A DNA stretch of 18,001 nt from Candidatus Bathyarchaeia archaeon. Its GTDB lineage: Archaea > Thermoproteota > Bathyarchaeia > Bathyarchaeales > Bathycorpusculaceae. The notes under the pieces were generated by a model that did not search any database, was not told the origin of the DNA, and was given only the letters and a program-made list of their open reading frames with translations. Both the position numbers and the translations under genes were made by a program. Below are positions 1 to 14,108 of this stretch, piece after piece. The DNA is taken from NCBI GenBank assembly GCA_049515895.1, contig JBEKTQ010000034.1, positions 1 through 18,001 of the forward strand, written 5' to 3'. Each line of letters starts with the position of its first letter. Position 1 is the first letter of the stretch.

Positions 1-231
1 ACTCATGGACCAAACATCGAGAAACGGCTTTATCGGTTGAGGTCTTCGATTGAAAGGGTGAATTCAAGGCTCAAAGAACAGCTGTGCTTGGAGAATCATA
101 GGGTGAGGAGTCTTGGGCGGATTGCTATTCATTCGTTGTTTTGCTTAATTGCTATGCTTTTGAACGCGGTTGCTGCTGTTAGGCTGAACGTTGTCGATAA
201 GGCTCGATGCATAACATTACTCGCAAAATGA
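1..231 (+). CDS. DDE transposase, C-terminal part (IS4/IS5/IS1182-like), truncated by the window edge
   Basis: Frame is open from base 1 (THGPNIEKRLYRLRSSIERVNSRLK). Y-x2-R-x3-E-R-x-N-S-R-L-K followed by RVRSL..IAIH matches the DDE transposase C-terminal signature. Confidence 0.75.
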   Translation, partial: THGPNIEKRLYRLRSSIERVNSRLKEQLCLENHRVRSLGRIAIHSLFCLIAMLLNAVAAVRLNVVDKARCITLLAK

Positions 232-2168: not shown

Positions 2169-4718
2169 ATGAAGATAGGAACAACAAAGACAGCGAGAGT
2201 TGGCTGCATCCTTCTCATCTTCTTCCTGCTCTGTGCTTTGACATTAATACCTCAGCCAATTCGAGCTGCGATAACGACAACGGTAACCGTTGGAAGCACC
2301 CCTATTGGTGTGGCTTTGACGCCTAATGGCGCTTATGCCTATGTAACAAATTTTATCAGCGACTCGGTCTCGGTGATAAACACGGCCACAAACAACGTAA
2401 CGGCAACGGTCAAGCTAACAGTTGGAAGCAACCCTTTTGGTGTTGCTGTAACGCCCAACGGCACATACACCTATGTTACAAATTATGGCAGCAACTCGGT
2501 CTCGGTGATAAGTACGGCCACAAACACTGTGACAGCCACAATAACCGTTGGAAGCTCGCCTTTCAGTGTGGCTGTAACGCCTAATGGCGCTTATGCCTAT
2601 GTAACAAATTACGGCAATGATTCGGTCTCGGTGATAAGTACGGCTACCAATACAGTGACAGCCACAATAACCGTTGGAAGCTCGCCTAAGGGTGTGGCTG
2701 TAACGCCTAATGGCGCTTATGCCTATGTAACAAATTACGGCAATGATTCGGTCTCGGTGATAAACACGGCCACAAACACTGTGACAGCCACAATAACCGT
2801 TGGAACCGGTTTTACCCATCCTTTTGGTGTGGCCTTGACTCCTAATGGCGCTTATGCCTATGTAACAAATTATGTCAGCAATTCGATTTCGGTGATAAGT
2901 ACGGCTACCAATACAGTGACAGCCACAATGATCGGTTTAAAATCGCCTGAGGGTGTGGCTTTGACGCCTAATGGCGCTTATGCTTATGTTGCAAATTATG
3001 CCAGCAACACGGTCTCGGTAATGAACACGGCCACAAACAACGTGACAGCCACAATAACCGTTGGAAACAACCCTGTTGGTGTTGCTGTAACGCCCAACGG
3101 CACATATGTATATGTAACAAATTTTGGCAGCGACTCGGTCTCAGTGATAAACACAGCTATCAATACAGAGACAGGCACAATAACCGTTGGAAGCAACCCT
3201 GTTGGTGTTGCTGTGACGCCTAATGGCGCTTATGCCTATGTAACAAATTATGGCAGCAACTCGGTCTCGGTGATAAGCACGGCCACAAACAACGTGACAG
3301 CCACAATAACCGTTGGAACCGGACCTGAGAACGTGGCTGTGACACCTGACGGCGCTTATGCTTATGTTACAAATTATGGCAGCAACTCGGTCTCGGTAGT
3401 AAACACGGCCACAAACAACGTAACGGCAACGGTCAAGCTAACAGTTGGAAGCAACCCTTTTGGTGTTGCTGTAACGCCTAATGGCGCTTATGCCTATGTA
3501 ACAAATTATGGCAGCAACTCGGTCTCGGTGATAAGTACGGCCACAAACACTGTGACAGCCACAATAACCGTTGGAAGCAACCCCGTTGGTGTTGCTGTAA
3601 CGCCCAACGGCACATACACCTACGTTACAAATGTTAACGGCGGATCGGTTTCGGTAATAAACACGGCCACAAACACTGTGACAGCCACAATAACCGTTGC
3701 AAGCGGACCTGTTGGTGTTGCTGTAACGCCCAACGGCACATACACCTACGTTACAAATCTTGGCAGCAACTCGGTCTCGGTGATAAGTACGGCCACAAAC
3801 ACTGTGACAGCCACAATAACCGTTGGAACCGGACCTGAGAACGTGGCTGTGACACCTGACGGCGCTTATGCTTATGTTACAAATAATGTGGACAACTCGG
3901 TCTCGGTGATAAGTACGGCCACAAACACTGTGACAGCCACAATAACCGTTGGAAACAACCCCGTTGGTGTTGCTGCGCCCAACGGCGCATACACCTACGT
4001 CACAAATCATGGCGGCAATTCAGTTTCAGTGATAAGCATACCGCCGACTGTTAGCATCGCTCCTATTGGTCCGCTTACTTTGAATGTTGGACAGGTACAG
4101 GTTTTTATGGCTGCGGCTAGTGGCGGTACGGGAAAACTGAATTATCAGTGGTACCTGGACGGCTTTGCGGTTTCAGGCGCTACCAGTACAAGCTATTCTT
4201 ATACTGCCGCGGCGGGATCACATTTGGTTACTTGCACGGTGACTGATAGCGCTTCTACTCCAGTTTCTTCTGCATCTAACGCGGTTTCTGCGAACGTGAA
4301 CCCTACTCCAAGCCCTACTCCAAGTCCTACTCCAAGCCCTACTCCAACACCAACTCAAGCTCCTACTCCAACACCAACTCAAGCTCCTACTCCAACACCA
4401 ACTCAAGCTCCTACTCCAACACCAACTCAAGCTCCAACTCCAACACCAACTCAAGCTCCAACTCCCACCGCAACGCCAACATCCGCTCCAATTCCGGTTG
4501 TTACTCCTGCACCGACTATTGCACCAACGGCTACACCAACACCAACTCCCACACCAGTACCATCTGCAACAAATGTGCCAACGATAACAACTACAGGGGC
4601 GCCAAGTATACCTCAAGGGGCAATCTATGGAATAGTGGCTGTCGTAGCCATCGTTGCAATCGTTGCAGTTGTGTTAACGCTAAACATCGTAGGAAAGTCA
4701 AAAGCTAAGAAAGGTTAA
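2169..4718 (+). CDS. YVTN/YncE-family beta-propeller cell-surface protein (14 repeats, Ig/PKD-like domain, Pro/Thr stalk, C-terminal TM anchor)
   Basis: Signal peptide, 14 repeats of P.GVAVTPNG.YAYVTN.....VSVI.TATNTV, an Ig-like segment (LNYQWYLDG...VTCTVTDS), PT repeats, then a hydrophobic helix and basic tail. GAGGTGA RBS. Confidence 0.95.
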   Translation: MKIGTTKTARVGCILLIFFLLCALTLIPQPIRAAITTTVTVGSTPIGVALTPNGAYAYVTNFISDSVSVINTATNNVTATVKLTVGSNPFGVAVTPNGTYTYVTNYGSNSVSVISTATNTVTATITVGSSPFSVAVTPNGAYAYVTNYGNDSVSVISTATNTVTATITVGSSPKGVAVTPNGAYAYVTNYGNDSVSVINTATNTVTATITVGTGFTHPFGVALTPNGAYAYVTNYVSNSISVISTATNTVTATMIGLKSPEGVALTPNGAYAYVANYASNTVSVMNTATNNVTATITVGNNPVGVAVTPNGTYVYVTNFGSDSVSVINTAINTETGTITVGSNPVGVAVTPNGAYAYVTNYGSNSVSVISTATNNVTATITVGTGPENVAVTPDGAYAYVTNYGSNSVSVVNTATNNVTATVKLTVGSNPFGVAVTPNGAYAYVTNYGSNSVSVISTATNTVTATITVGSNPVGVAVTPNGTYTYVTNVNGGSVSVINTATNTVTATITVASGPVGVAVTPNGTYTYVTNLGSNSVSVISTATNTVTATITVGTGPENVAVTPDGAYAYVTNNVDNSVSVISTATNTVTATITVGNNPVGVAAPNGAYTYVTNHGGNSVSVISIPPTVSIAPIGPLTLNVGQVQVFMAAASGGTGKLNYQWYLDGFAVSGATSTSYSYTAAAGSHLVTCTVTDSASTPVSSASNAVSANVNPTPSPTPSPTPSPTPTPTQAPTPTPTQAPTPTPTQAPTPTPTQAPTPTPTQAPTPTATPTSAPIPVVTPAPTIAPTATPTPTPTPVPSATNVPTITTTGAPSIPQGAIYGIVAVVAIVAIVAVVLTLNIVGKSKAKKG
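2280..4040 (+). repeat. About 14 intragenic ~126-bp repeats encoding propeller blades
   Basis: Near-identical DNA units such as acggccacaaacactgtgacagccacaataaccgttggaa and cctaatggcgcttatgcctatgtaacaaat recur throughout. Confidence 0.9.
4302..4457 (+). repeat. Tandem repeats: 3x12 bp (PTPS) then 5x24 bp (PTPTPTQA)
   Basis: cctactccaag(c/t) x3 at 4302-4337 and cc(t/a)actccaacaccaactcaagct x5 at 4338-4457. Confidence 0.95.
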
Positions 4719-4765: not shown

Positions 4766-5803
4766 TTATAGATTTACAAGTCTGGGTATCCAGTCTTTCT
4801 TTTCGTTTCTCAAATACTTCGCAAACAACAGAGCTTCTTCACTAATCAAAGTGTCAACAGTCTGACTATTCCCGTGCTTAATTCTTGCAACATCAACCCT
4901 GCGGTCAAAAAGACTATTCAAGCCTTCAGCAAGGTTATCAGCTTCAAACTCGCATAAATGAATTTTCTTTCCCATTTTGAGGTGCATCATGAAATCGGTT
5001 ACGAGAACAAAGTCTTTTTTGCGCAAGGAGTGACAGCGTTCAATCAAGTAGTCATCAATCAAATAGCGATAAAGTTCTTGAAAGTCACATACTAAACTGG
5101 GTTTTCCAAATTGGACACTGTGAAGAAAACCCAAGTATGGTTCAAGCTTAGCCTTCAGCAATGCTTTGTGTACTCTGCATTTTAACACGTAATAGCCAAA
5201 ATTGAAGACATTATTCAATCCATCATAAGCCTTGAATGTTCGCCTATTCTCAGGTCTGATACTTTCAGGAAATAGCTTGAAAATTTCTTTGAAATAGAGC
5301 CTTGCACATTTGCCTTCTATTTGAGTAAGTCTTCTTCGATATACTTTCAAGTCTTCTGAAGCAACACTTTCTATTTCCCTGATAATACATGCAGTTTCAA
5401 GTGGTTTGAGAGCATATTTCTTTAGAACTTTGTTTTGTCCTTCAAGCTTAGACAAAAGAAACTGCTTAGCTATTGCAATCCCTTTTTTGTTGCTGAGAGC
5501 TTCGTATTGGCTGAGCCTTGTTTGAACGTGGGAATCATCTTCCAGATTCCTTAAAACAGCTACCACTCGGTTTCTTTTGGTCATTATGTATGTGTCTATA
5601 TTCCAGAGTGCAAGGTCAATCAAAGCATCAACGCTGACGTAGGAACCGCTTTTTAGTACAGCTTCGCCGATTTCTTTTTGGAAGTGTGGGTATCGTTCAA
5701 TTTTTCCAGTTTTGTCTCTGATTTCAAAGCATCCTTCAGCTCTGCCCAAATAAGAACCATAATTGGATAACTCAACTTTCAAAACCTTAGAACCTTGAAC
5801 CAT
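4766..5803 (-). CDS. cas1: Stand-alone Cas1 endonuclease/integrase (Cas1-solo, casposase-like), 345 aa
   Basis: Cas1 motifs IEGKCARLYF (catalytic E), NNVFNFGY, EPYLGFLH (H), PSLVCDFQELYR (D/E). True start is likely ATG 5803, just after the upstream gene's stop; the track's extension to 5950 overlaps that gene. Confidence 0.95.
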   Translation of the reverse strand: MVQGSKVLKVELSNYGSYLGRAEGCFEIRDKTGKIERYPHFQKEIGEAVLKSGSYVSVDALIDLALWNIDTYIMTKRNRVVAVLRNLEDDSHVQTRLSQYEALSNKKGIAIAKQFLLSKLEGQNKVLKKYALKPLETACIIREIESVASEDLKVYRRRLTQIEGKCARLYFKEIFKLFPESIRPENRRTFKAYDGLNNVFNFGYYVLKCRVHKALLKAKLEPYLGFLHSVQFGKPSLVCDFQELYRYLIDDYLIERCHSLRKKDFVLVTDFMMHLKMGKKIHLCEFEADNLAEGLNSLFDRRVDVARIKHGNSQTVDTLISEEALLFAKYLRNEKKDWIPRLVNL

Positions 5804-5807
5804 GATT

Positions 5808-6497
5808 TCACACATCCTCAATTGTCTCTGATTCAGCGGTGTTCCTGTCAAGAAATTCTCTAATTGCTTCTTGTCGTTCTTCTTCAGTAGCCCAAATTCC
5901 TGCTTTTTCAAATTCAAAAAGGTATTTCTCTCTTGCTTTAAAAACCGCATTGCCTATTGCTTTCACATAAACCTCGTAAAACCATTCTGGATCAAAGAAT
6001 TTTAGATTCACTTTTGACTTGATTTCTAAGAGGGAATTAACAAATACTTCACCGAAATAAGACTCTATCAATGAGCAAAGTTTTGGTGACAAACGCTTTT
6101 TATCTACTAGAAGATCATCGAGGAAGATAGCTGATGCATAAGCATCACTTTGCTGATCAGATTTGAGTGATGAACGCTCTTGGTAGTGTTTTCTAAAGAT
6201 TTCCTTATTCACTTCTTTTAGTTCTTTTTCTTGAAGGTCTCCGTCGATTAAGAGTGTCGCTAGTCCTTTGGAGGTTAATTCTATTTTCATTGCTTTTCTT
6301 TTTTCAGGTTCTCCGACCTTTAATAGCTCAATATCTCGTAGTCTGTAGATGTTACGGCGAATTGTTGAAAATGTTGAACCCTTGATACTCTTAGCTAATT
6401 TATACATGCTCGTTTGCGGTGAGACTAGCAGGACTTTTAGAATTTCCATCTTTGAGTTTGTGTCTGATTTATTCGTTTTTCTGGGTTTTTTAGACAT
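5808..6497 (-). CDS. Winged helix-turn-helix transcriptional regulator with helical C-terminal domain
   Basis: ILKVLL...SMYKLAKSIKGSTFSTIRRNIYRLRDIELL...IELTSKGL is a wHTH pattern with the wing LTxKG. Stop is 4 nt before the cas1 ATG. Confidence 0.8.
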   Translation of the reverse strand: MSKKPRKTNKSDTNSKMEILKVLLVSPQTSMYKLAKSIKGSTFSTIRRNIYRLRDIELLKVGEPEKRKAMKIELTSKGLATLLIDGDLQEKELKEVNKEIFRKHYQERSSLKSDQQSDAYASAIFLDDLLVDKKRLSPKLCSLIESYFGEVFVNSLLEIKSKVNLKFFDPEWFYEVYVKAIGNAVFKAREKYLFEFEKAGIWATEEERQEAIREFLDRNTAESETIEDV

Positions 6498-6570: not shown

Positions 6571-6759
6571 ATGGAAAAAATAACTGAAGTAAAAGCTGTC
6601 TCTTGTAGCCGATGCGGCAACACTTGGCTGCCAAGAGTTAAAAACCCAGTGAAGTGCCCAAAATGTGGGCATCGATTTGACTCAAAAATAAACATCCAAC
6701 CAAGAAGAAAACCCAAAACACGTAACTCATTGCAAGGAGGGAAGCCAAATAATGAGTGA
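6571..6759 (+). CDS. Small C4 zinc-ribbon protein
   Basis: CSRCGNTWLPR...PVKCPKC with basic tail; GGTGA RBS. This pattern is typical of archaeal virus/plasmid Zn fingers. Confidence 0.8.
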   Translation: MEKITEVKAVSCSRCGNTWLPRVKNPVKCPKCGHRFDSKINIQPRRKPKTRNSLQGGKPNNE

Positions 6760-7033
6760 AAACAAAGAAAACAAATTTGCAAAAGCTTGCCCAGAATCAG
6801 CCAAAATACTCGAACAGAAGAAGCAATGCATGAACGGGTTTAGGGAAGACCTGAGAGATGGAGCTTTCCAAAAAGGCATAATGTGGCGCAAAAACAAACT
6901 CCAAGCGATACATGATGCAAGACTAGCAGGAGTCATTGACGCGGAAATCCTCAAGGAACTTAGAATCGGCGGAATAACGGCGCAAAAAGCACGCGAATTG
7001 ATGCGCGATTCTGAGGAGCTTCTAGGGAGGTAA
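6752..7033 (+). CDS. Hypothetical 93-aa helical protein
   Basis: GGAGG RBS; overlaps the previous gene by 8 nt, in operon context. Confidence 0.7.
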   Translation: MSENKENKFAKACPESAKILEQKKQCMNGFREDLRDGAFQKGIMWRKNKLQAIHDARLAGVIDAEILKELRIGGITAQKARELMRDSEELLGR

Positions 7034-7040
7034 CGAAACA

Positions 7041-7532
7041 ATGCGCCTTAACTTTAGAGTAAAAATAGTCAACATAACATTCTTTGCAATGGTCGCAAAA
7101 ACCCAACGGCTTGAAGGCGTTTCTTCACTTCAAAAGGATGGCAAGCATATTGTAATGTTTGATTTAGAAAATTGTTCTCTTGTACAAGCCGAAAAAACGC
7201 TAAGAAGAATTCAAAGGAAATATCATTTATCTGATATTTTCATCGTTTCGGACGTTGAAAAATCATATCGTGCATGGTGTTACAGCAAAGTTGGCTTCGT
7301 GACTTTTTTGAAAATACTTCTTGATGTAAAATTCTTGGATTGGAATTTCTTTTACTGGACAGTCAAGAGAGGCAAGGCAACACTGAGAACTAGCACAAAG
7401 AAAGGACGTCAACCCCAGAGAATTGTCAGCGTTTTGACGTCGTATTCTGTACCGATTTCGAATTCCTGTGAGAAAGTTGTCTATGACACTGGATTGACGA
7501 AAAGAGGCTTTACCGTTCTGTTGGGGGATTGA
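7041..7532 (+). CDS. Putative divergent archaeo-eukaryotic primase (AEP)-fold protein
   Basis: GGAGGT RBS. HIVMFDLE resembles motif I (hhhDhD/E), IFIVSDVEKSYRAW resembles motif II with His replaced by Arg, and D...RGKATLRTSTK resembles the D..LR..K motif III region. Confidence 0.5.
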   Translation: MRLNFRVKIVNITFFAMVAKTQRLEGVSSLQKDGKHIVMFDLENCSLVQAEKTLRRIQRKYHLSDIFIVSDVEKSYRAWCYSKVGFVTFLKILLDVKFLDWNFFYWTVKRGKATLRTSTKKGRQPQRIVSVLTSYSVPISNSCEKVVYDTGLTKRGFTVLLGD

Positions 7533-7534
7533 AA

Positions 7535-7879
7535 ATGGATAGGTTTCCTGAAGCTTTTGAACGGTTTGAGAGGGTTGTTGACGTAGACAGGTTCAGGTCT
7601 TATTTCGAGTTGGCTCTGGCTTTTCAATCTTGGGCGGGTCGAAACTGGACAGGCACAGCAAAGCAATGGAAAGCATTAGACAGGGAATCAGAAAACTTGG
7701 GTTTATCACCACCCACAATTTTCGGCAGTTCAACAAGAACGAGAGGATATTCAACCTATCACATTCCCACAAGAAAAACGAAAGCTGTTACGTTTAGACA
7801 TGAGGTTGTTAACGTAAAAGGCAAGTCTCAAAACAGGTACAGAGACCTCAAGACAGGACGCTTCATAAAGAAGCCTTAG
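7535..7879 (+). CDS. Hypothetical protein with basic C-terminal RDxxxGRF motif
   Basis: GGGGGA RBS before ATG 7535 (track start TTG 7529). C-terminus RYRDLKTGRFIKKP. Confidence 0.7.
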   Translation: MDRFPEAFERFERVVDVDRFRSYFELALAFQSWAGRNWTGTAKQWKALDRESENLGLSPPTIFGSSTRTRGYSTYHIPTRKTKAVTFRHEVVNVKGKSQNRYRDLKTGRFIKKP

Positions 7880-8464
7880 TCAAGTATCAGAAAATGGGTT
7901 AGATTCTGACCATACATCATCGAAAAATTTCATTGCATCAGTTATTGCCTGAGGGTAGTTTGAAGTAATCCCTGCATCAAAACGACTACCTCCAAAGCAA
8001 TCGGTTTGAATATCACCAGAACCAACAATTAAAAACCTTGTTTTCGGTATACAGAACAATCTCGCGTGCAACATTGGATGCAATCTTACTTCAGCGCCTG
8101 CCTTACTTAGTCTTTCGAGGGCATCTTTGTTTTTCTTTCTAGAAACAGTATCACTCGGGCTAATAATCTTGATTTTTTTGGCTATTGGAATAAGTTTGTC
8201 AAGTATTACTTGATCAAAGTGACCCATAATATATATGGTTATGTCGCCTTGAAATAGCATACCCATCATGCCCATACCACGACGTGGGTCAAACAAGTTT
8301 TCTATTAATTGGCTGTATGTTCTAGTTTGTGGTGAACTTACAACAAATCTTGGAGCCAAACTCTCTTTGTTTTCTTGAATTTGTCTATTTCTTTGCATTT
8401 CTTCTTCAATTGAGGTTATTCTTCTCTTAATTTCTTCGAGAGTGGTTTTCAGGTCTTCAGCCAT
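7880..8464 (-). CDS. Phospholipase D-superfamily (single HKD-type) domain protein with N-terminal coiled coil
   Basis: GAEVRLHPMLHARLFCI...LIVGSGDI...FDAGI...FFDDVWSES matches the PLD-nuclease layout with HxK as HAR and GSxN as GSGD. Confidence 0.7.
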   Translation of the reverse strand: MAEDLKTTLEEIKRRITSIEEEMQRNRQIQENKESLAPRFVVSSPQTRTYSQLIENLFDPRRGMGMMGMLFQGDITIYIMGHFDQVILDKLIPIAKKIKIISPSDTVSRKKNKDALERLSKAGAEVRLHPMLHARLFCIPKTRFLIVGSGDIQTDCFGGSRFDAGITSNYPQAITDAMKFFDDVWSESNPFSDT

Positions 8465-8580
8465 CCTTTTTCACAAAATCTAATCAGCTCTCTAAGTAGA
8501 AAAGAATTGTGCTTTGAAACCTTGCCAAAATATAGTTTATGAAATTAAGATGCAATAGTTGTTTACCTGATTAATGGTTG

Positions 8581-8728
8581 GCAGACAGAGTGAGTGACAT
8601 ACAGAGACAGACTGACAGACAGACATTAGGCACGCACGCGGGCGGGGGAGAGTGCACGCGTTAGAGAGAACGTAGTCGTTAGAGTTAGTGAGTTCGAGAG
8701 AGAGAGAAAAAGATTAAATTTTAATCCC
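8581..8728. repeat. Low-complexity strand-biased repeat tract ending in a 15-bp palindrome
   Basis: Repeated (G)ACAG units, GCACGCG x2, GTTAGAG x2, a (GA)n run, then GATTAAATTTTAATC (8712-8726) followed by CC. Confidence 0.75.
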
Positions 8729-8835
8729 AAACCCAAAAACTGTTCTTACCTTAGCTAGCTATCATTTGGTGCATTTTGTATGACCAAAAATATAATAAAC
8801 AAAAACTAACAACCTTCAATCAGGAGATAAAATCG

Positions 8836-9153
8836 ATGCCATTTTGCAGTAAATGTGGTCAAGAGATACCCAATAACGCAAATTTCTGCCCAAATTGCGG
8901 AACGCAAATTGGAACTGTGGAAGAGACTTTTTCTGTTTCCTCTAACGACTTAGTTCGGAAAGTTAAGGAATTAGTCCACGAAGGAAATGTTAGACGAATA
9001 ATTATCCAGAACGAAGAGGGCAAAACTCTGCTTGAGATGCCTGTTACAATTGGGGTTATAGGCATGGTTTTAGTTCCATGGCTAGCAGCGATTGGGGCAA
9101 TTGCCGCCTTAGCTACGAAATGCACTATAGTTGTCCAAAGACAGAAAGAATAG
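8836..9153 (+). CDS. Zinc-ribbon + DUF4342 domain protein
   Basis: GGAGA RBS before ATG 8836. FCSKCG...FCPNCG followed by VKELVHEGNVRRIII...LLEMPVTIG...LAAIGAIAALATKCTIVV. Confidence 0.85.
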   Translation: MPFCSKCGQEIPNNANFCPNCGTQIGTVEETFSVSSNDLVRKVKELVHEGNVRRIIIQNEEGKTLLEMPVTIGVIGMVLVPWLAAIGAIAALATKCTIVVQRQKE

Positions 9154-11327: not shown

Positions 11328-11389
11328 ATAAAGTTACTTTACTTAGTAAACTATTTAAATATAAGCTAACATAAAGTAAAGCAAGTAAC
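11328..11389 (+). promoter_or_regulatory. 62-bp bidirectional promoter/operator element, copy 1
   Basis: ATAAAGTTACTTTACTTAGTAAACTATTTAAATATAAGCTAACATAAAGTAAAGCAAGTAAC; 53/62 identical to copy 2 and 55/62 to copy 3; central TATA-like core. Confidence 0.85.
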
Positions 11390-11404
11390 CGAAGATGAAA
11401 AAAT

Positions 11405-11776
11405 ATGGTTCAAGGTCAACCAAATAAAGAACAAGTTATGAATATGATTGAGCAGACAGTAGAAATAATTGGCGATAAATGGAGCTTCCTCATAATTTGC
11501 GAAATTGCTTTTGTAAAAAGCCCCAGCAGATTCAACGAAATAATGAAGGAACTAAAACCTATAAGCTCAAGAACGTTATCAATAAAACTGTCCAAATTAG
11601 CCGATAACGGGATCGTTGAAAAAACTGTCGAAAACGCCTCACCGCCGTATACCAAGTACTCTCTAACGGAAAAAGGCAAAGACGCAGTCAATGTGTTAAT
11701 AGCAATGGGCGAATGGGGTTTTAAATGGCTATGTCCAGACTTAAAGCAAACCTGCGGCGAAAGAACAGGCATGTGA
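11405..11776 (+). CDS. HxlR-family (DUF24) winged-helix regulator
   Basis: IIGDKWSFLII...RFNEI...ISSRTLSIKLSKL...PPYTKYSLTEKG...MGEWG. Confidence 0.93.
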   Translation: MVQGQPNKEQVMNMIEQTVEIIGDKWSFLIICEIAFVKSPSRFNEIMKELKPISSRTLSIKLSKLADNGIVEKTVENASPPYTKYSLTEKGKDAVNVLIAMGEWGFKWLCPDLKQTCGERTGM

Positions 11777-13730: not shown

Positions 13731-13770
13731 TATTTCAGTCCTCTAACTGGAAGCTAAATGGCTAATTATT

Positions 13771-13832
13771 GTAAAGTAACTTCACTTTGTAAACTATTTA
13801 AGTCTAAGCTAACAAGCAGTAAAGCAAGTAAC
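13771..13832 (+). promoter_or_regulatory. 62-bp promoter/operator element, copy 2
   Basis: GTAAAGTAACTTCACTTTGTAAACTATTTAAGTCTAAGCTAACAAGCAGTAAAGCAAGTAAC; 41 bp from the ABC ATPase start. Confidence 0.85.
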
Positions 13833-13949: not shown

Positions 13950-13997
13950 GTCAATCATATTCGTAATTTGTTCTTTACTTGGGTGATCTTGAACCAA
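13950..13997 (-). pseudogene. hxlR N-terminal fragment
   Basis: TTG start giving MVQDHPSKEQITNMID, versus MVQGQPNKEQVMNMIE of the intact HxlR; 17 bp from element copy 3. Confidence 0.8.
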
Positions 13998-14013
13998 ATT
14001 TTGTACCGCTGCT

Positions 14014-14075
14014 GTTACTTGCTTTACTTTATGTTAGCTTATGCTTAAATACTTTATAAAGTAAATTAACTTTAC
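14014..14075 (-). promoter_or_regulatory. 62-bp promoter/operator element, copy 3 (inverted)
   Basis: Reverse complement GTAAAGTTAATTTACTTTATAAAGTATTTAAGCATAAGCTAACATAAAGTAAAGCAAGTAAC; 34 bp before the Rieske ATG. Confidence 0.85.
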
Positions 14076-14108
14076 AGATTCTTAAGTTAAAAATTACCAG
14101 GTGAATAA

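Follow-up and report, generated by a model that had tools for sequence, protein, structure and literature searches.

Genes and features at the locus

In the window, by which we mean the whole stretch of 18,001 nt that was analysed from a Candidatus Bathyarchaeia archaeon, a gene for a Cas1-family integrase and two small adjacent genes, orf163 and orf116, are accompanied by accessory and cargo genes and by the right end of an element (Table 1). The first-pass annotation had read the product of orf163 as carrying AEP motifs in their proper order within only 163 aa, with a D-x-E signature and with His changed to Arg. All of these were present in the translation, which contains, from N- to C-terminus, HIVMFDLE (residues 36–43), SDVEKSYRAW (70–79), D100 and RGKATLRTSTK (110–120).

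Table 1. Coordinates of the features discussed, with the evidence for each
Feature	Position	Strand	Evidence and remarks
Cas1-family integrase, 394 aa as listed	4766–5950	−	Pfam Cas_Cas1, E 2.2e-42; TIGR00287, E 5.5e-41
229-aa accessory gene	5808–6497	−	HTH-like hints weak, all below thresholds; in some relatives
62-aa zinc-ribbon protein, accessory in some copies	6571–6759	+	Family scans, locus comparison
orf93, small helical protein directly 5′ of orf163	6752–7033	+	Shared by some elements of the family, among them the distant L029
orf163, miniature AEP-superfamily (PF24387/RepB′-primase-related) protein, 163 aa	7041–7532	+	Homology, motifs, structure model
orf116, partner gene, 116 aa	7535–7879	+	Homologue alignment, synteny; listed ORF 7529–7879 starts at TTG 7529
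194-aa cargo gene	7880–8464	−	PLDc_2, 23 bits against a cut-off of 27: a weak match to PLD-like nucleases
Right terminal inverted repeat, inferred	8575–8711	−	Low-complexity, CT/CA-rich, inward start TTTTTCTCTCTCTC; similar to the L002 TIRs and to solo ends of the host genome
Target-site copy at right end, 15-bp palindrome	8712–8726	.	GATTAAATTTTAATC then CCAAACCCAAA; same 13–15 bp form a direct repeat at both ends in relatives

A word-indexed search returned 200 relatives of orf163 at E ≤ 0.01, whilst an exhaustive search with a profile of 28 close relatives gave 672 cluster representatives at E ≤ 0.001, the best 150 of which range from 66 to 276 aa in length. In ungapped codon comparisons with three relatives, dN/dS values of 0.125, 0.079 and 0.113 were obtained, and the orf163 family is thus under purifying selection at a dN/dS of ∼0.1. 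Given these values and the many relatives of both genes (174 were found for orf116), orf163 and its partner are real genes and not chance frames.

The adjacent gene with a basic tail that had been described at first pass was likewise recovered: the listed ORF ends in RYRDLKTGRFIKKP, which forms the basic tail of a conserved C-terminal part that also contains a β-hairpin, and this part is joined by a variable, disordered linker to a conserved N-terminal three-helix domain. As homologues begin at MDRFPEAF, the true start of orf116 is probably, judging from the alignment, the ATG at 7535, 2 nt past the orf163 stop. It lies directly 3′ of orf163 in all 12 genome loci and in 74 of 80 metagenome loci, the six misses being loci that end within 52 nt of the gene. 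In a decayed copy, L012, an N-terminally truncated orf163 reads in frame into orf116; a longer or fused form of orf116 was not found, which is weak evidence. Scans of Pfam, PHROGs and NCBIfam gave no family match for orf116, its AlphaFold2 model (pLDDT 71.4) had no Foldseek match in the PDB (best E 1.4), and its scores in a protein atlas (≤ 0.85) were at chance level. A complex prediction for the two proteins, run without controls, scored 0.00 and gives no verdict either way.

With regard to Cas1, homologues align from about residue 48–52, and the true start is therefore probably, on this alignment, M46 or M50 (about 5815 or 5803). The protein has all four catalytic residues, E212, H277, D289 and E292; among 10 aligned sequences the E, H and D are invariant and position 292 is always acidic (D/E), such that by sequence the enzyme is catalytically intact. 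No other cas gene stands beside it, and the host genome contains neither Cas2 nor, in a k-mer scan, a CRISPR array. Of the remaining genes, the 229-aa accessory gene had tblastn matches in L002, L042, L053, L057, L058, L060 and L082, and, of the loci examined, the metagenome locus L042, which is 100 % identical, was the only one to contain the 194-aa cargo gene. For orf93 we considered a role like that of Cas2 but dropped it, since the protein looks wholly helical on visual inspection and no Cas2 match was obtained.

Ends, contents and distribution of the element family

Among the relatives, orf163, orf116 and Cas1 lie inside elements of 3.8–12.6 kb, typically 3.8–6 kb. Terminal inverted repeats (TIRs) of ∼100–200 nt and 94–99 % identity were found in L002, L003, L005, L006, L008, L028, L029 and L059, and a decayed TIR pair in L009. 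Eleven distinct loci extend for 2.5 kb or more to either side; in nine of them Cas1 is located within 4 kb of orf163, whereas the other two have a broken orf163. Three distant relatives from other families of the order have a 44–50 % identical Cas1 within 1.6–6.5 kb. This linkage to Cas1 inside TIR-flanked elements bears out the initial proposal that orf163 and its neighbour belong to a Cas1 element.

Beside the TIRs we observed a 13–15-mer that in nine of nine elements fits a direct repeat better than an inverted one (mismatches 0, 1, 0, 0, 0, 0, 2, 2 and 0 as direct repeat, against 1, 2, 1, 1, 1, 3, 3, 6 and 1 as inverted repeat). This 13–15 bp direct repeat would represent a target-site duplication, as read from the element ends and not from an empty-site comparison; in same-genus genomes no empty site was readable, the right-flank gene having about 78 % identity and the upstream DNA being unrelated.

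The copy in the window has intact genes, and because only its right end is kept (8575–8726) it has probably lost the ability to move autonomously. Its left TIR was found neither in the window nor in the assembly, which yielded only older solo ends of 80–90 % similarity. Neither the single terminal repeat of this copy nor the palindromic duplication in the element family had been noticed at first pass. One contig of run X3 departs from the window sequence before 8711, a difference to which we attach no weight. At the opposite side, contigs of two other runs, of which one is possibly the source sample, run through from the left neighbour gene into Cas1 and show no difference there. A copy of this kind, with one terminal repeat, intact genes, a left junction that is identical in two other runs (one perhaps the source sample) and a single orf163 in the genome, is what might be expected if the three genes were a domesticated host module, e.g. 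for Cas1-based defence or repair, with orf163 serving host DNA repair. We regard this as highly improbable in view of the relatives, where near-identical TIR pairs and direct repeats are found, the genes on either side vary from genome to genome, several copies have decayed or been cut short, and the cargo is variable (e.g. a restriction–modification pair or a Shedu nuclease). The patchy distribution speaks against domestication as well: the family profile matched six of 401 genomes sampled from the phylum, a sample in which the 10 other genomes of the genus gave no match.

Metagenome relatives came from peat, wetland and sediment. A search of a viral contig collection with close-family patterns returned no relative of orf163. 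No PolB is encoded in the 4–6 kb elements, which contain no ORF of more than 460 aa, and family scans of the 10 window ORFs and 17 accessory ORFs of relatives detected no polymerase family.

Kinship, motifs and predicted structure of orf163

In family scans, orf163 itself matched no Pfam, NCBIfam or PHROG model. Two members of its family, both among the 672 representatives, nevertheless pass curated primase models although orf163 is below detection: P0344 (profile E 9.4e-22; 37 % identical to orf163 over 137 aa, pairwise E 5e-24) passes PF24387 'AEP-like' (34 bits, E 3e-8; cut-off 27), and P0341 (profile E 8.3e-23; 35 % identical over 135 aa, pairwise E 7e-26) passes RepB_primase with 26.5 bits against 24.3. 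It is by this transitive homology alone that orf163 is placed in the AEP superfamily, in agreement with the divergent AEP-type protein proposed at first pass. In a wide alignment of 46 family members, PF24387 was matched at E up to 10 by 15 (best 3e-8), and a protein-language-model search returned a cluster of look-alikes (score 0.95, 192 shared features), 54 % of whose members carry PF24387. PF24387 was not found in the 401 genomes of the phylum, and a literature search found no paper on the function of PF24387 proteins. Against the sequences of solved structures, the close-family profile and a profile of distant members gave either chance matches (histone H2B, E 0.035) or nothing, the close-family profile recovering no solved structure. 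Identity as an HUH Rep was also considered and dropped, given the homology to primases and as no HUH motif was seen on reading the sequence by eye.

The definition of the AEP motifs, with D-x-D/E at a strand end and motifs II and III, reportedly goes back to Iyer et al. in 2005. Motif I of orf163 (D41-L-E43) is at the end of strand 36–43 in the AlphaFold2 model; D41 is found in 45 of the 46 sequences of the wide alignment, and at position 43 there are 34 sequences with D and 11 with E (E in 25 and D in three of the 28 close relatives), whilst P0344 has D-x-H. The motif III Asp, D100, is present in 28/28 close relatives and 42/46 sequences of the wide alignment, and the acidic motif on whose conservation the first-pass reading had been made to depend is thus conserved in homologues. 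It is followed by K112-A-T-L-R116 and then K120 (R116 in 46/46, K120 in 44/46), and D41, D100, R116 and K120 are all invariant in the close relatives. Motif II (S75-Y-R77) has Arg, in 28/28 close relatives, where AEPs have His; in the wide family this position is R in 21 sequences, H in 11 and another residue in 14, and the s-x-H pattern is absent from orf163.

The AlphaFold2 model of orf163 (pLDDT 80.9) has the order strand (motif I), helix, β-hairpin (motif II) and helix, with residues 149–155 at pLDDT < 50. Foldseek against the PDB, the comparison by which the first-pass annotation had proposed to judge an AEP fold, gave mostly AEP primases as best matches: AEP enzymes (primase small subunits, Prim-PolC and the LigD polymerase domain) fill 12 of the first 19 rows, all of them weak (E 0.095–0.39, TM 0.3–0.4), and nothing was found at E ≤ 0.001. 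In a viral structure library the best match was an uncharacterised protein of Pyrobaculum filamentous virus 1 (E 3.2e-4), followed by DUF927, a primase-helicase and Replication protein B.

These observations also bear on whether orf163 is an enzyme at all, a point on which the first-pass annotation had allowed for either an active or an inactive protein. It could have an AEP/RRM-like fold and yet be no polymerase, and instead bind DNA or play an architectural part alongside Cas1, recognising the TIR ends or the palindrome, or bridging Cas1 dimers as Cas2 does, with orf116 as a second DNA-binding piece. Such a role would suit the missing motif II His, at a position that is variable in the wide family, and the very small size of orf163, whose chain has no attached helicase, zinc-binding or PriCT domain; no AEP of demonstrated activity is, to our knowledge, as small as 163 aa. 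It would also suit the five of the first 19 Foldseek rows that are polyomavirus T-antigen origin-binding domains, the fold of which is related to the AEP/RRM-like fold, and the distant Cas1-linked relatives L029 and L023, in which no Asp aligns with D100. Moreover, the most conserved positions, G26, R116 and Y148 (46/46 each), are not the acidic ones. Nevertheless, 42–45 of 46 sequences retain the acidic triad at an identity of only about 30 %, a degree of conservation not easily accounted for unless the protein carries out metal-dependent chemistry, and related proteins pass models of catalytic primases. Furthermore, orf163 and orf116 are kept intact in elements without Cas1, such as L077. 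We consider a purely binding role unlikely, albeit one to be taken seriously.

The invariant Y148 lies in the flexible C-terminal segment of the model, and together with the long TIRs and the T/G-rich, telomere-like tracts that adjoin the element ends it could point to self- or end-priming, in which the hydroxyl of this Tyr (or of the orf116 tail) would prime at the element ends in the manner of the terminal proteins of family 1 casposons and other TIR-bearing linear replicons. We hold this to be very unlikely: we know of no precedent for protein priming by an AEP, all copies seen were integrated with no free linear or circular form, and the invariant Tyr is equally explicable as structural.

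A candidate DNA-synthesis module and its relation to known systems

On balance, and with confidence a little better than even, we favour the reading that orf163 and orf116 are the DNA-synthesis (or gap-filling) module of a casposon-like transposon that is compact, lacks PolB and occurs in Bathyarchaeia-type archaea; the catalytic activity of orf163, its part in gap filling or priming and the helper role of orf116 are what we infer from the evidence above. In this scheme, the Cas1 integrase would join both TIR ends to the palindromic 13–15 bp target by staggered attack, leaving single-strand gaps that would become the direct repeats. The mini-AEP, using D41, E43 and D100 for two-metal catalysis and with R77, R116 and K120 contacting nucleotide phosphates, would fill these gaps and/or prime copying of the element in place of the family B polymerase of casposons, and orf116, with its helical domain and basic β-hairpin tail, may serve as a template-binding or primer-initiation helper. 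Several observations speak against this reading: orf163 itself matches no family model and its fold matches are weak, its motif II has Arg, P0344 has D-x-H, L029 and L023 have no Asp at D100, the protein is very small, Cas1 is missing from some elements (L077) and broken in others (L002 and L003), and the window copy has no left end.

The four established casposon families are all defined by Cas1 plus a family B polymerase. The elements described here share with casposons a Cas1 integrase with a full catalytic set, TIRs, site preference, the lack of a CRISPR context, and variable cargo that includes restriction–modification genes; the duplicated target of 13–15 bp also resembles that of casposons, which is about 14–15 bp (15 bp in PMC9939771). 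They differ in having the 163-aa AEP-like protein and its 116-aa partner instead of a family B DNA polymerase, in their much smaller size, and in their target, which is a multi-copy, AT-rich palindrome between T/G-rich and C/A-rich tracts and not the end of a tRNA or protein gene. In a ranking by sequence among solved structures, their Cas1 also scores higher with 4n06_A (E 6.5e-21), an Archaeoglobus fulgidus protein deposited as 'CRISPR-associated endonuclease Cas1 1', than with 6opm_A (E 1.9e-16), the M. mazei casposase.

Also comparable are the proposed 'family 5' casposases of hot springs, which were described as Cas1 proteins without cas neighbours, near subtype I-A Cas1, on contigs that mostly lack a DNA polymerase and have hypothetical proteins as neighbours, with TIRs in five contigs, and which were termed non-self-replicating (Front Microbiol 2022, PMC9755687). 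By that published description, the two groups have in common a Cas1 without cas neighbours, the general lack of a polymerase, and TIRs; in the parts of the description compared here, no primase-like gene, partner gene or palindromic duplication is named, and the source is hot springs rather than peat, wetland and sediment metagenomes. Among the publications searched, none describes a Cas1 transposon that carries a primase.

At the level of the protein, orf163 resembles PF24387 and the RepB′ primase of RSF1010 (PF16793) in having a domain of about 130–190 residues with D-x-D/E as motif I, a motif III Asp and then a conserved Arg, and its relatives pass both models; orf163 itself, in contrast, falls below detection for both, has Arg for the motif II His, lacks a PriCT or helix-bundle domain in its chain, and is found in a Cas1 transposon rather than a plasmid or phage replication module. 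A genetic link between Cas1 and AEP-superfamily enzymes has been described for the CAPPs, for which DNA synthesis tied to Cas1 integration was proposed (Nat Commun 2021, PMC8211822). CAPPs belong to CRISPR–cas loci, whereas the host of orf163 has no CRISPR array and no Cas2, and the Prim-Pol model PF09250 was touched by only one of the 46 orf163 family members (E 0.2).

If an intact Cas1 together with a 163-aa AEP-type enzyme proves to be a widespread arrangement, Cas1 transposons would be seen to have an exchangeable synthesis module; a similar swap of polymerase for primase-polymerase is known from polinton-like viruses. As a very small AEP, orf163 would be a candidate for biochemistry, and three small proteins with defined DNA ends could be used to test how gaps are filled after Cas1 integration. 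The CRISPR adaptation machinery has been proposed to descend from casposons, and a palindromic target that regenerates itself would be a direct parallel of CRISPR repeat duplication: were the repeat duplicated at every insertion, the palindrome would multiply, and it occurs in 29 copies in the host genome and in 10 copies within 11.5 kb of one metagenome contig. It is conceivable, though we think it rather doubtful, that the elements are a living model of a pre-CRISPR step, in which Cas1 inserts into a short palindromic repeat and duplicates it each time, arrays of repeats with inserted DNA between them form, and the gaps are filled or the element is copied by a mini-primase and its partner instead of PolB. 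Were this so, Cas1-linked AEPs, both orf163 and the CAPPs, would mark an ancestral partnership of Cas1 and primase, and the duplication of repeats by Cas1 would be older than CRISPR immunity.

Genes, distribution and cargo of the Cas1 element

Orf163, a small AEP/primase-like gene, its adjoining partner orf116 and Cas1 are genes of a Cas1 transposon, and the proposal in the first-pass annotation that orf163 and its partner formed part of a Cas1 element is supported. In public genomes, a Cas1 gene of 60-80% identity was found within ~2 kb of orf163, upstream in divergent orientation or downstream in the same direction. Across 86 distinct loci bearing orf163 relatives, Cas1 lay within 4 kb in 31, most others being contigs of <3 kb; where at least 2.5 kb was available on both sides, it was present at 9 of 11 loci, and the two loci without it (L010 and L012) carry a frameshifted or truncated orf163. 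Near-perfect terminal inverted repeats (TIRs) of ~100-200 nt surround the module in L002, L003, L005, L006, L008 and L059, and a decayed pair does so in L009; their sequence varies from element to element, whilst matching within each. The genes flanking the elements vary among genomes. Two distant elements, L028 (12.6 kb) and L029 (4.5 kb), carry, between TIRs of their own, an AEP-like gene and a Cas1 of 44-50% identity. All four catalytic positions of Cas1 (PMC4046053) are present in 10/10 aligned sequences. At locus L077, Cas1 is missing and orf163 and orf116 are intact; elements of this type show that the pair is kept independently of Cas1 in cis.

Gene map of the window, with further features discussed in the text
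Feature	Position	Strand	Remark
Transposase-like ORF, C-terminal part	1-231		contig begins within it
DUF5752 gene, 102 aa	287-595	-
YVTN-repeat surface protein gene	2169-4718		left neighbour of element genes
Cas1	4766-5950	-	Pfam Cas_Cas1, 2.2e-42
229-aa gene	5808-6497	-
62-aa zinc ribbon	6571-6759	+
orf93	6752-7033	+
orf163	7041-7532	+
orf116	7529/7535-7879	+
194-aa gene	7880-8464	-	weak PLD-like match
TIR-like stretch	~8575-8711		right end of element
Palindrome	8712-8726		right end of element
DUF4342 gene	8776-9153		right neighbour of element genes
Inverted repeats	11329-11451, 13770-13832, 13951-14076		52-75 nt, 84-88% identity

Of 401 genomes sampled from the phylum, the family profile of orf163 matched 6; the sample includes 10 other genomes of the same genus, none of which matched. 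Cargo includes Mrr-type endonuclease, DNA methylase and ParB-like genes in L028, and a Shedu SduA_C nuclease in L007 (= L086). The latter, an archaeal-type element with Cas1, orf163 and orf116, was found in a bin of the bacterium Candidatus Levybacteria, probably through a binning error, as a metagenome contig has identical orf163 DNA and the same total length. No polymerase B family was detected among the window ORFs and the accessory ORFs of relatives, and the 4-6 kb elements contain no ORF of >460 aa.

The 18,001-base window is an entire contig of a 3.18 Mb genome, and its closest public-genome relatives carry the labels Bathyarchaeota or Bathyarchaeia. Its opening inside a transposase-like ORF is a likely cause of the assembly break. 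Eight more copies of the nearby DUF5752 gene (29-55% identical) occur in this genome, and relatives of it also adjoin elements in L008 and L010. The inverted repeats in the right part of the window bracket an HxlR-type regulator gene and ABC transporter genes, and have no relation to the Cas1 element.

Element ends and the state of the window copy

Every element end is adjoined by the 15-mer GATTAAA(A/T)TTTAATC, the orientation of which can be read because it is palindromic except for the central base. The two copies fit a direct repeat better than an inverted one in 9/9 TIR-confirmed elements, and this fit holds for the asymmetric variants in L009, L028 and L029; the arrangement looks like a target-site duplication of 13-15 bp. 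Beyond the ends, the palindrome is preceded by T/G-rich tracts, e.g. (TTTGGG)n or (GT)n, and followed by C/A-rich ones. In the genome of the window there are 29 palindrome copies (≤1 mismatch), ~16 with a CT-rich element end at one side and ~10 that are C/A-rich on both sides, read outward. At L112:122-10627, ten 15-bp copies occur in 11.5 kb around a single Cas1 and orf163 module, those on the upstream side ~270-1650 bp apart, in an array-like pile-up of target copies.

In four metagenome runs (X1-X4), two of them possibly the source of the window DNA, the motif-containing bin 8532-8815 exceeded its neighbours ~3- to 10-fold in summed contig depth. In X1 and X2, contig breaks fall at 8700-8728, and in other contigs several different sequences run on from 8692-8739. 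The depth excess and the breaks at the motif fit a multi-copy junction. Elsewhere in the genome, the terminal motif (palindrome plus CT tract) occurs in inward-facing pairs around ordinary-looking genes, for instance at contig C24:24732-27979 and C21:56058-61903; one pair encloses a PQQ-repeat surface protein, the other an MFS transporter with ATPase/TPR regulators. The pairs have only 24-28 nt in common and no long TIR; they are perhaps cargo-bearing elements that have eroded with age, or else the motif in another use.

The window copy has a right end only; the window contains no left end, and no matching TIR was found elsewhere in the assembly. In L003, L004 and L006, which have the same gene order, an extra gene and the left TIR lie beyond Cas1; in the window, 48 nt separate the end of the YVTN gene from the Cas1 stop. 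This junction is spanned without differences by contigs of X2 (possibly the source sample) and X3, and is therefore no assembly artefact. The three core genes are all intact. Most probably, this copy has a single end and is not mobile by itself. Separately, fragments matching only the last 30-70 Cas1 residues occur apart from complete elements, in the same genome (contig C13:991-1083 and C10:5-76) and at L002:863-1066, L006:3319-3411, L059:9332-9484 and L070:2530-2649; these resemble what is left of decayed copies in which the Cas1-proximal end survived.

Orf163 and the AEP superfamily

Orf163 is a real gene under constraint (dN/dS of 0.08-0.13 against three relatives) and belongs to a large family. 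By word-indexed search it has 200 relatives at E ≤ 0.01, with identities of 58-100% among the best 120. Exhaustive searching with a profile yielded 672 cluster representatives at E ≤ 0.001, 303 of them at 1e-10 or below; the top 150 of the 672 are 66-276 aa long, with no large fused form among them. The window protein had no match in Pfam, PHROG or NCBIfam, and the 'AEP-like' family PF24387 was touched by just 2 of 28 close relatives (E 0.031). More distant members, detected with the family profile, score better: 15 of 46 matched PF24387 (E up to 10), and two exceed curated cut-offs, P0344 that of PF24387 (34 bits vs 27) and P0341 that of RepB_primase (26.5 bits vs 24.3), and both align directly with window orf163 over ~135 residues (37% identity, E 5e-24, and 35% identity, E 7e-26, respectively). 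Independently, a language-model search returned a look-alike cluster with PF24387 in 54% of its members. Membership of the AEP superfamily by transitive homology is thus well supported, in line with the divergent AEP-like identity first assigned to the gene.

The motif strings originally quoted for orf163 were confirmed in place in the translated ORFs, and the acidic residues hold across the 46-sequence alignment: D41 of motif I in 45, D or E at position 43 in 34 and 11, respectively, and D100 of motif III in 42. After motif III, R116 is present in all 46 and K120 in 44. Position 77 of motif II, His in AEPs, is R in 21, H in 11 and another residue in 14, and the His-to-Arg change noted earlier extends throughout the close family. 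This loss, the small size of orf163 and a motif III that is not fully conserved in distant branches all speak for the main rival explanation, that of an AEP-fold DNA binder or Cas1 partner without catalysis; conservation of the acidic triad argues against it.

The AlphaFold2 model (pLDDT 80.9) has, in order, a motif I strand, a helix, a motif II hairpin and another helix. Foldseek gave no PDB match at E ≤ 0.001; the first 19 entries, all at E > 0.001, included 12 AEP enzymes and five T-antigen origin-binding domains. In a viral library, the sole match below 0.001 was an uncharacterised Pyrobaculum filamentous virus 1 protein, after which came primase-type entries. The predicted fold is consistent with an AEP.

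The partner gene and a possible role in DNA synthesis

Orf116 follows orf163 after a 2-nt gap or, with a TTG start, overlaps it by 4 nt. It lies directly 3' of orf163 in 12/12 genome loci and 74/80 metagenome loci, the remaining six contigs stopping ≤52 nt from orf163. Its N-terminal 60 and last 30 residues are strongly conserved around a variable linker, and its model is made up of three helices, a disordered region at residues 65-85 and a beta hairpin, with no match to known families or folds. It was not detected beside the distant AEP-like genes of L028-L030, and so is specific to the branch of the window. In one decayed copy (L012:9995-10684), a natural fusion takes the form of a 229-aa ORF in which orf163, N-terminally truncated and beginning at residue 42, reads in frame into orf116. 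The two proteins also have similar conserved end motifs (Y-D-T-G-x-x-K-R-G at 145-156 of orf163 and Y-R-D-L-K-T-G-R-F at 103-113 of orf116), and their tails might share one binding partner.

The element family has the Cas1, TIRs and ~15 bp duplication of casposons but lacks their PolB, and its apparent 13-15 bp duplication is the same size as the 15 bp reported for casposase integration (PMC9939771). PolB-less 'family 5' casposases, proposed in 2022, are placed close to subtype I-A Cas1 and have hypothetical proteins as neighbours; the paper names no primase-like gene (PMC9755687). Going by their description, they could belong to this group or to one related to it. CAPPs, AEP enzymes linked to Cas1, are found in CRISPR loci (PMC8211822), whereas the genome hosting the window element has no CRISPR array (k-mer scan) and no Cas2. 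In the literature searched, no Cas1 transposon with an AEP-type gene was described. The reading with most support is that DNA synthesis for a Cas1 transposon without PolB would be provided by orf163, probably together with orf116, which it might do by filling the staggered gaps that create the duplication, by priming the copying of the element, or both.
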